The translations under genes were made by a program, and so were the position numbers. A stretch of 64,000 nt of DNA, from assembly GCF_003790525.1 (NCBI RefSeq), contig NZ_CP033635.1; one strand, 5' to 3'. Each line of letters starts with the position of its first letter. The stretch's first letter is position 1. Shown here in pieces: positions 60,314 to 64,000 of this stretch. The notes beneath the pieces are model-generated. The model did not search any database. It was not told the origin of the DNA and saw nothing but the letters and a program-made list of their open reading frames with translations. This DNA comes from Escherichia coli (GTDB lineage: Bacteria > Pseudomonadota > Gammaproteobacteria > Enterobacterales > Enterobacteriaceae).

Positions 60314-62740
60314 ATGTCCAAAAATGAACAAATGGTGGGCATCAGCCGCAGAACACTCGTTAAATCTACCGCGATAGGTTCTCTGGCGCTGGCTGCAGGC
60401 GGTTTTTCTTTACCGTTCACCCTGCGCAGTTCAGCGGCAGCGGTACAACAGGCCAGCGAAAAAGTGGTCTGGGGTGCCTGTTCCGTCAACTGTGGTAGCC
60501 GCTGTGCACTTCGTCTACATGTTAAAGATAATGAAGTCACTTGGGTGGAAACTGACAACACCGGCAACGACGAGTATGGCAATCAACAAGTACGCGCCTG
60601 TTTGCGCGGTCGGTCCATCCGTCGACGTATTAATCATCCCGATCGCTTGAATTACCCAATGAAACGCGTGGGCAAACGTGGCGAAGGCAAATTCGAACGG
60701 ATTAGCTGGGATGAAGCCCTGGATACTATCGCCAGTAGCCTGAAAAAAACCGTCGAACAATATGGCAATGAGGCTGTATATATTCAGTACTCTTCAGGGA
60801 TCGTTGGCGGCAATATGACCCGCTCTTCACCATCAGCCTCGGCGGTCAAACGCCTGATGAACTGCTACGGCGGTTCACTCAATCAGTATGGCTCCTACAG
60901 CACCGCGCAAATTTCCTGTGCCATGCCCTACACCTACGGCAGTAATGATGGCAACAGCACCACGGATATTGAAAACAGCAAGCTGGTCGTGATGTTTGGT
61001 AACAACCCGGCAGAAACCCGCATGAGCGGCGGTGGCATCACTTATCTTCTTGAAAAAGCACGCGAGAAATCGAACGCAAAAATGATTGTTATCGATCCGC
61101 GATATACCGATACGGCTGCTGGTCGTGAAGACGAATGGTTACCTATTCGCCCGGGCACCGATGCCGCGCTGGTTGCGGGTATTGCCTGGGTATTGATTAA
61201 CGAAAATCTCGTTGATCAACCTTTTCTCGATAAATACTGCGTCGGCTATGACGAAAAAACCTTACCCGCAGATGCACCAAAAAATGGTCACTATAAAGCC
61301 TATATTCTTGGTGAAGGTGATGATAAAACAGCGAAAACGCCGCAGTGGGCTTCGCAAATTACCGGTATCCCGGTGGACCGTATCATCAAGCTGGCTCGTG
61401 AAATTGGCACAGCAAAACCCGCTTATATCTGCCAGGGCTGGGGGCCGCAACGCCAGGCAAACGGTGAGCTGACCGCACGCGCTATTGCTATGTTGCCTAT
61501 TTTGACGGGCAATGTCGGCATCAGCGGCGGAAATAGTGGTGCGCGTGAATCGACCTATACCATTACCATAGAACGCCTACCGGTGCTGGATAATCCGGTC
61601 AAAACGTCAATCTCTTGCTTCAGCTGGACGGATGCTATCGATCATGGCCCGCAAATGACGGCAATCCGCGACGGTGTCCGGGGCAAAGATAAACTGGATG
61701 TGCCCATTAAGTTCATCTGGAACTACGCGGGAAATACCCTCGTTAATCAGCATTCTGACATCAACAAAACGCATGAAATTCTGCAGGACGAATCGAAATG
61801 CGAAATGATTGTGGTCATCGAAAACTTTATGACCTCATCGGCAAAATATGCCGACATTCTGCTGCCAGACCTGATGACCGTTGAGCAGGAAGATATTATT
61901 CCTAACGACTACGCCGGTAACATGGGATATCTCATTTTCCTTCAGCCAGTCACCAGCGAAAAATTCGAACGCAAACCGATTTACTGGATCCTGAGTGAAG
62001 TCGCGAAACGTCTTGGACCTGACGTCTATCAAAAGTTCACTGAAGGTCGCACTCAGGAACAATGGTTACAACATCTGTACGCCAAAATGCTTGCCAAAGA
62101 TCCGGCGTTACCGTCTTACGACGAACTGAAAAAAATGGGTATCTATAAGCGTAAAGATCCCAATGGTCATTTTGTCGCCTACAAAGCATTTCGTGAGGAC
62201 CCCGAGGCAAATCCACTTAAAACGCCTTCCGGTAAGATTGAAATTTATTCCAACAGGCTGGCGGAAATTGCCCGTACCTGGGAACTGGAAAAAGATGAAG
62301 TGATAAGCCCATTGCCAGTTTATGCCTCAACCTTTGAAGGCTGGGACTCCCCTGAACGTAGAACCTTCCCACTGCAACTGTTTGGTTTCCATTACAAATC
62401 CCGTACTCACTCGACCTACGGCAACATTGATGTCCTGAAGGCAGCCTGCCGTCAGGAGGTGTGGATCAACCCTATAGATGCACAGAAACGTGGGATTGCC
62501 AACGGCGATATGGTGCGGGTGTTTAACCATCGTGGCGAAGTTCGGCTACCAGCCAAAGTGACACCACGCATTCTCCCTGGAGTTAGTGCTATGGGCCAGG
62601 GAGCCTGGCACGAGGCCAATATGTCTGGCGATAAAATCGACCATGGCGGCTGTGTGAATACGCTAACCACTCTGCGCCCTTCACCACTGGCGAAGGGAAA
62701 CCCGCAGCACACTAATCTGGTCGAGATCGAAAAAATATAA
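60314..62740 (+). CDS. ynfE: Tat-exported molybdopterin oxidoreductase (DmsA paralogue)
   Basis: 808-aa ORF with twin-arginine signal (SRRTLVKSTAIG) and N-terminal Cys cluster. Confidence 0.9.
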   Translation: MSKNEQMVGISRRTLVKSTAIGSLALAAGGFSLPFTLRSSAAAVQQASEKVVWGACSVNCGSRCALRLHVKDNEVTWVETDNTGNDEYGNQQVRACLRGRSIRRRINHPDRLNYPMKRVGKRGEGKFERISWDEALDTIASSLKKTVEQYGNEAVYIQYSSGIVGGNMTRSSPSASAVKRLMNCYGGSLNQYGSYSTAQISCAMPYTYGSNDGNSTTDIENSKLVVMFGNNPAETRMSGGGITYLLEKAREKSNAKMIVIDPRYTDTAAGREDEWLPIRPGTDAALVAGIAWVLINENLVDQPFLDKYCVGYDEKTLPADAPKNGHYKAYILGEGDDKTAKTPQWASQITGIPVDRIIKLAREIGTAKPAYICQGWGPQRQANGELTARAIAMLPILTGNVGISGGNSGARESTYTITIERLPVLDNPVKTSISCFSWTDAIDHGPQMTAIRDGVRGKDKLDVPIKFIWNYAGNTLVNQHSDINKTHEILQDESKCEMIVVIENFMTSSAKYADILLPDLMTVEQEDIIPNDYAGNMGYLIFLQPVTSEKFERKPIYWILSEVAKRLGPDVYQKFTEGRTQEQWLQHLYAKMLAKDPALPSYDELKKMGIYKRKDPNGHFVAYKAFREDPEANPLKTPSGKIEIYSNRLAEIARTWELEKDEVISPLPVYASTFEGWDSPERRTFPLQLFGFHYKSRTHSTYGNIDVLKAACRQEVWINPIDAQKRGIANGDMVRVFNHRGEVRLPAKVTPRILPGVSAMGQGAWHEANMSGDKIDHGGCVNTLTTLRPSPLAKGNPQHTNLVEIEKI

Positions 62741-62797
62741 CCCTCTACGACCATAAATTTTGACATGACATTTTGTTTGAAAAGCAATAAGTGAGTA

Positions 62798-64000
62798 ATG
62801 ATGAAAATCCATACCACAGAGGCGCTCATGAAGGCTGAAATCAGCCGTAGAAGTCTGATGAAAACCTCCGCACTTGGCAGTCTTGCGCTGGCAAGCAGTG
62901 CTTTCACTCTGCCATTTTCCCAAATGGTCCGAGCGGCAGAGACACCGGTAGAAGAGAAAGCGGTCTGGAGTTCCTGCACCGTTAACTGCGGGAGCCGCTG
63001 TCTGTTACGTTTGCATGTGAAAGATGACACCGTGTACTGGGTGGAGTCTGATACGACAGGTGACGACGTCTACGGTAATCATCAGGTTCGAGCGTGTTTA
63101 CGCGGGCGCTCTATCCGTCGACGGATGAATCATCCTGACAGGTTGAAATATCCCATGAAGCGCGTCGGCAAGCGCGGTGAAGGTAAATTTGAACGGATAA
63201 GTTGGGATGAAGCCCTGGATACCATCAGTGATAATCTTCGGCGGATCCTGAAAGATTACGGCAATGAGGCTGTACATGTCCTGTACGGAACAGGCGTAGA
63301 TGGCGGAAACATCACCAACTCGAACGTCCCGTACCGTCTGATGAACTCTTGCGGTGGTTTTCTCAGTCGCTATGGCAGCTACAGTACCGCACAGATCAGT
63401 GCCGCGATGAGTTATATGTTCGGTGCCAATGATGGCAACAGCCCGGATGATATCGCCAATACGAAACTGGTCGTTATGTTCGGAAATAACCCGGCAGAAA
63501 CCCGGATGAGCGGCGGTGGTGTCACTTACTACGTCGAGCAAGCCCGCGAACGTTCAAACGCACGCATGATCGTCATTGATCCACGTTATAACGACACTGC
63601 TGCCGGCGTGAAGATGAATGGCTGCCCATTCGCCCTGGCACCGATGGCGCACTGGCCTGTGCGATTGCCTGGGTACTGATTACTGAAAACATGGTCGATC
63701 AGCCATTTCTCGACAAATATTGTGTTGGTTACGATGAAAAAACGCTGCCCGCCAACGCACCACGTAACGCGCATTATAAAGCCTATATTCTGGGCGAAGG
63801 GCCTGACGGCATAGCTAAAACGCCGGAATGGGCAGCAAAAATCACCAGCATCCCGGCAGAAAAAATTATCCAGTTGGCACGAGAGATCGGTTCAGCAAAA
63901 CCGGCTTATATTTGTCAGGGTTGGGGGCCACAACGACATTCCAACGGCGAGCAAACATCCCGCGCTATTGCCATGCTTTCCGTTCTCACCGGTAACGTCG
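62798..64000 (+). pseudogene. ynfF: ynfF, DmsA paralogue with a 1-bp frameshift near 63605; continues past window end
   Basis: Track ORF stops at 63679, but the paralogous protein sequence continues in the +1 frame to the window edge; GCCGGCGTGAAG where paralogue ynfE has GCTGGTCGTGAAG. Confidence 0.55.

Follow-up and report, generated by a model that had tools for sequence, protein, structure and literature searches.

The locus at the downstream end of the window, by which we mean the whole stretch of 64,000 nucleotides of Escherichia coli DNA that was analyzed, raises the question of whether the second of two neighbouring reductase genes has really been lost and, if so, what this loss would mean for the organism. 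A sequence-only reading had recognized tandem paralogues, ynfE and ynfF, had noted a single missing base in the latter and had offered two alternative explanations, real pseudogenisation and an error of assembly. The features concerned are as follows.

60314..62740, plus strand: ynfE, the intact catalytic subunit paralogue with a Tat signal (SRRTLVK); 808 aa by ORF scan and translation.

62801..64000, plus strand: 5' half of the ynfF pseudogene, which continues beyond the window edge to the equivalent of ∼65223; the whole CDS measures 2,423 nt in RefSeq.

63605..63606, plus strand: deletion site (1 bp), reading GG where intact ynfF alleles read GGG, from alignment with the SCU-172 ynfF and with ynfE.

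62801..63679, plus strand: truncated ynfF frame of 292 codons, comprising 269 native residues and 23 out-of-frame residues, with the TGA stop at 63677-63679.

63607..64000, plus strand: 3' ynfF coding sequence, out of frame with the start codon; residues 270 onward, starting REDEWLPIRPGTD.

The assignment of both genes is borne out by NCBIfam scores above the curated cut-offs and by their operon context. YnfE from the window (RefSeq entry WP_000041668.1) is encoded by an intact ORF and scores 1792.6 bits on the NF041885 model (selenate_YnfE) versus a cut-off of 1675. YnfF, once its reading frame is repaired, scores 1773.6 bits on NF041884 (selenate_YnfF; cut-off 1650) and, with 1481.4 bits, does not reach the cut-off of the YnfE model; each of the two proteins thus falls under the threshold of the other's model. 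In the annotation of strain SMS-3-5 (NC_010498.1), the genes are ordered ynfD, ynfE, ynfF, ynfG, ynfH and dmsD, which corresponds to the ynfEFGH-dmsD operon, and ynfE, ynfG, ynfH and dmsD are all intact. The Ynf operon of E. coli and Salmonella has the same gene order and, as here, Tat signals on both catalytic subunits. At the DNA level the paralogues are 70.0% identical when compared in full and 69.7% identical when only the sequence inside the window is considered, in agreement with the initial estimate of about 70%; at the protein level the identity is 70.1%, compared with 71% reported for Salmonella.

An ORF scan detects a 293-codon ORF at 62798-63679, located 60 bases 3' of ynfE, the RefSeq start being one codon later at 62801. 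Alignment and ORF repair both confirm that ynfF lacks one base relative to ynfE. The diagnostic motif GCCGGCGTGAAG had been read correctly, although its position had to be shifted by one base, from 63601-63612 to 63602-63613; its counterpart in ynfE, GCTGGTCGTGAAG, lies at 61118. Likewise, the loss itself had been recognized properly, while the identity of the base had not: comparison with ynfE points to a T, whereas intact ynfF orthologues show that a G of a GGG run has disappeared. Relative to the intact SCU-172 allele, GCCGGGCGT has become GCCGGCGT. The stop codon is found where it had been placed, its last base being 63679, and the +1 frame indeed runs on normally as far as the window edge; in SMS-3-5, whose sequence is identical, it extends to the normal stop. 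Restoring one G in the SMS-3-5 sequence yields a 2,424-nt ORF without internal stop, encoding the 807-aa YnfF that passes the family model. As it stands, the gene contains no uninterrupted reading frame of ∼807 aa, being stopped after 292 codons. The ynfF gene of the window is a pseudogene of the YnfF family and not a functional member of it.

The repaired protein displays the domain order of the A subunit of DMSO/selenate family complexes (TIGR02166; Mo-bisMGD enzymes), with PF04879 (Fe4S4) at residues 52-111, PF00384 (Molybdopterin) at 114-565 and PF01568 (Molydop_binding) at 686-799. In the actual 292-residue product, Pfam searches recover only PF04879 (52-111) and positions 1-149 of the 353 positions of PF00384, and no Molydop_binding domain is found. 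The truncated YnfF is therefore predicted from its domain content to be unable to hold the Mo-bisMGD cofactor or to catalyze: it retains the Tat signal peptide and the N-terminal 4Fe-4S domain, but the greater part of the molybdopterin domain, with its conserved PIRPGTD segment, is missing, as is the whole C-terminal dinucleotide-binding domain.

To determine the distribution of the lesion, an 81-bp query centred on the deletion was compared with 5,426 complete E. coli genomes. An exact match is present in 24 of them; among the matches listed, the same stretch in non-carriers spans 82 bases, the extra G being present, and 4,620 genomes match at 95-99% identity. Set against some 4,600 other genomes, the difference is specific and reproducible and does not represent a chance pattern. 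This comparison with other strains, which had been proposed as a check, favours a real pseudogenisation. Twenty-three of the 24 carriers are 100% identical across the entire 2,423-nt pseudogene, and their sources include human, chicken, dog, pangolin, river water and surface water in several countries. Window positions 62700-64000 are 100% identical to SMS-3-5 and 22 other complete genomes, and the larger interval 56700-64000 differs from SMS-3-5 at one base. Over the adjacent 25 kb, 22 lineage genomes are ∼100% identical and the next best genome reaches 98.8%; consistently, the ynfE allele of this lineage is found at ≥99% identity in exactly 24 genomes, with the next at 98.4%. RefSeq flags ynfF as 'frameshifted' in all four lineage genomes inspected (SMS-3-5, 2D, KFu014 and LS45), and the SMS-3-5 locus ECSMS35_RS08155, identical over 62700-64000, already carries the label 'ynfF ... 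frameshifted'. In the 81-bp, full-gene and 25-kb flank comparisons, GGG at the deletion site was seen in no member of the lineage, and no sister with an intact ynfF was found within the clone, as all genomes near-identical over the 25-kb flank carry the deletion. Because such a sister is lacking and the next closest genomes are at 98.8%, the event can be neither dated nor polarized within the clone. The deletion is recent, as the pseudogene is otherwise undamaged. SMS-3-5 serves as the ST354 reference genome (PMC9174282), and near-identity to the SMS-3-5 lineage suggests that the other carriers probably belong to ST354 as well. One carrier, LS45, shows a second, private 1-bp deletion, of an A at nucleotide 169 of ynfF (L009:269, corresponding to window position 62969), which reflects either the onset of further decay or a mistake in this single assembly.

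We are highly confident that ynfF was inactivated by a genuine, clonal 1-bp deletion, that Ynf activity is left to YnfE together with YnfG and YnfH, and that the loss of the redundant gene is tolerated. Three other readings would leave a functional YnfF in place. According to the one already raised, the missing base is a homopolymer sequencing or assembly error and ynfF is in reality intact. Short G runs are indeed the type of site prone to indel errors, and the private deletion of LS45 could itself be such an error. On the other hand, a run of three bases is not long enough to cause the same error systematically on different platforms, and the allele recurs in 24 separately sequenced and independently assembled complete genomes from differing laboratories, hosts and countries. 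Since the same error in 24 independent projects is not credible, the deletion is considered a clonally inherited mutation, in line with the NCBI 'frameshifted' flags, and we dismiss the assembly error, which we consider extremely improbable.

Bypass of the frameshift by recoding, either through -1 ribosomal frameshifting or through transcriptional slippage, would still allow full-length YnfF to be made, and the perfect preservation of the downstream frame is what would be expected in that case. However, this preservation is explained by recency, with zero substitutions among 23 genomes, and more than 4,600 other genomes encode YnfF in a single frame. Moreover, the two frames overlap by just 88 nt (63592-63679), and this overlap contains neither an X XXY YYZ slippery heptamer, as required for programmed -1 frameshifting, nor a long homopolymer run. 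Recoding was dismissed on these grounds and has a negligible chance of being correct. Equally far-fetched is a split gene, in which an N-terminal fragment and a C-terminal fragment restarted at an in-frame ATG (63691), 12 nt past the premature stop, together form an active enzyme. The bases upstream of this ATG, CTGATTACTGAAAAC, contain no recognizable ribosome-binding sequence; a restart there would sacrifice 28 native residues (270-297), among them the conserved PIRPGTD segment of the Molybdopterin domain, the break would fall inside a single Pfam domain, and the C-terminal piece would lack a Tat signal. With no Shine-Dalgarno sequence, 28 conserved residues missing and the domain split, restart at this site was likewise rejected.

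Inactivation by a clonal deletion thus being the preferred reading, its probable course can be outlined. The selenate/tellurate reductase operon ynfEFGH-dmsD contains a tandem pair of paralogous genes for the catalytic subunit, of which ynfF is the second. A GGG to GG deletion in ynfF has been inherited clonally in the E. coli lineage to which SMS-3-5 belongs (ST354, phylogroup F neighbourhood), so that translation stops after 292 codons and intact YnfE, YnfG and YnfH are left as the sole enzyme of this type. The clone would then keep Ynf activity via YnfE and have lost a redundant isoenzyme.

The function of the operon in selenate and tellurate reduction derives from genetics in Salmonella, K-12 and BW25113 (PMC5203670; PMC12724226). 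For Salmonella it is reported that YnfF 'does not contribute greatly' to the selenate reductase activity and that YnfE alone still allows a ΔynfF strain to reduce selenate (PMC5203670), while in E. coli BW25113 deletion of both ynfE and ynfF abolishes selenate reduction (PMC12724226). Extrapolating from this Salmonella and K-12 genetics, YnfE-YnfG-YnfH is most likely the only enzyme of this kind in the clone and Ynf activity is most likely retained; the loss of ynfF is presumably tolerated because the paralogues are redundant. Additionally, the premature stop, situated ∼1.5 kb upstream of ynfG, could lower the expression of ynfG, ynfH and dmsD by polarity.

In K-12 and most E. coli, ynfF is intact, in contrast to the frameshifted copy of the window lineage. 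The gene has been lost elsewhere in the species as well. A junction-specific query detected a 1,570-bp ynfF remnant in 546 of the 5,426 complete genomes (∼10%), among them the ST131 reference EC958. Two examples are listed here.

L005:5001-6570 and L007:4264-5833: ST131-type ynfF remnant, 1,570 bp.

As in the window, this lesion inactivates the same gene of the same operon and leaves ynfE, ynfG, ynfH and dmsD intact. It is independent, however, and looks older, as it consists of two internal deletions, of 580 bp and 274 bp, whereas the damage to the ynfF of the window is limited to a single 1-bp deletion. Expression of 'ynfF' in EC958 was measured in a 2025 paper that did not point out its pseudogene status in this strain. 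A third, independent loss is the IS1-associated deletion of strain MB07152 (L006:2986-5326), in which the region from the 5' part of ydfJ through rspAB and ynfA-E and across most of ynfF has given way to IS1B, and just the terminal 336 bp of ynfF survive. Disruption is not confined to ynfF: about 207 genomes match less than 80% of ynfE, and in a few the match has a length of 2,426 bp. In NZ_CP074861.1 and NZ_CP074726.1, for instance, the match falls one base short of the 2,427-bp ynfE, a sign that ynfE may carry 1-bp frameshifts in other lineages; in other genomes ynfE is split or truncated. In line with these observations, the E. coli metabolic genes found to have the highest pseudogene frequencies in a 2026 pangenome study include ynfE and ynfF (PMC13322260).

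Such recurrence leads to a further reading of the loss, namely that it was selected, for example because it removes competition with YnfE for YnfG/YnfH, DmsD or the molybdenum cofactor, or because it removes a cost in the host. At least three independent losses of ynfF, including that in ST131 EC958 with flanking ynfE, ynfG, ynfH and dmsD intact, speak for selection, as does fixation of the frameshift in 24 of 24 lineage genomes. Clonal fixation, however, is possible without selection, and the disrupted or length-variant ynfE alleles elsewhere fit a general relaxation of constraint on both paralogues (PMC13322260). We therefore regard a selected loss as unlikely. Slightly less likely still is the specific proposal that successful clones of extraintestinal pathogenic E. 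coli have lost ynfF convergently and as an adaptation, through a frameshift in ST354 and internal deletions in ST131. If the loss were adaptive, more YnfGH, DmsD or molybdenum cofactor could become available to YnfE and DmsA, or the cell could be rid of a periplasmic reductase that carries a cost in the host. Selection is not needed to account for the data, which are explained by clonal inheritance and relaxed constraint, and because the carriers are clonal, neutral and selected loss are inseparable by sequence alone.

Taken as inactivation of a redundant gene, the feature is a clonal frameshift, recent and of an ordinary kind. It is already known, in that it is recorded in public annotation and fits the published pattern, and it has little importance past correct annotation. 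In models of strains of this clone, the Ynf reductase is best given YnfE as its sole catalytic subunit. Recognizable as GCTGCCGGCGTGAAG in place of GCTGCCGGGCGTGAAG, the 1-bp deletion can serve as a convenient lineage marker, and the recurrent loss of ynfF in E. coli makes a modest point on the redundancy of paralogous molybdoenzymes.

Several minor differences and neighbouring features were recorded along the way. The window belongs to a sister strain of SMS-3-5 and is distinct from SMS-3-5 proper. Window position 59368 (ynfC) is T versus A in SMS-3-5, and position 46933 (dgcZ) is A versus C in KFu014. An intergenic run at ∼47915-47920 is A6 in the window and A7 in KFu014; among the matches listed, it is one base short of the lineage genomes, and it may be private to the strain or a homopolymer error. 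In SMS-3-5, a 1,331-bp IS3-family element interrupts ydeR; the window lacks this element (junction at ∼3098-3102), and its ydeR is an intact 167-codon ORF at 3070-3573 on the minus strand. According to the SMS-3-5 record, with coordinates transferred by offset, an ECSE_1600-family autotransporter gene at ∼9695-14539 on the minus strand is a truncated pseudogene without its C-terminus, and a fragment of an HTH regulator lies near it. Finally, the annotation of strain S12 records clcB (L005:8872-10164), which lies downstream of dmsD, as a pseudogene interrupted by an internal stop, whereas clcB is intact in the window lineage.
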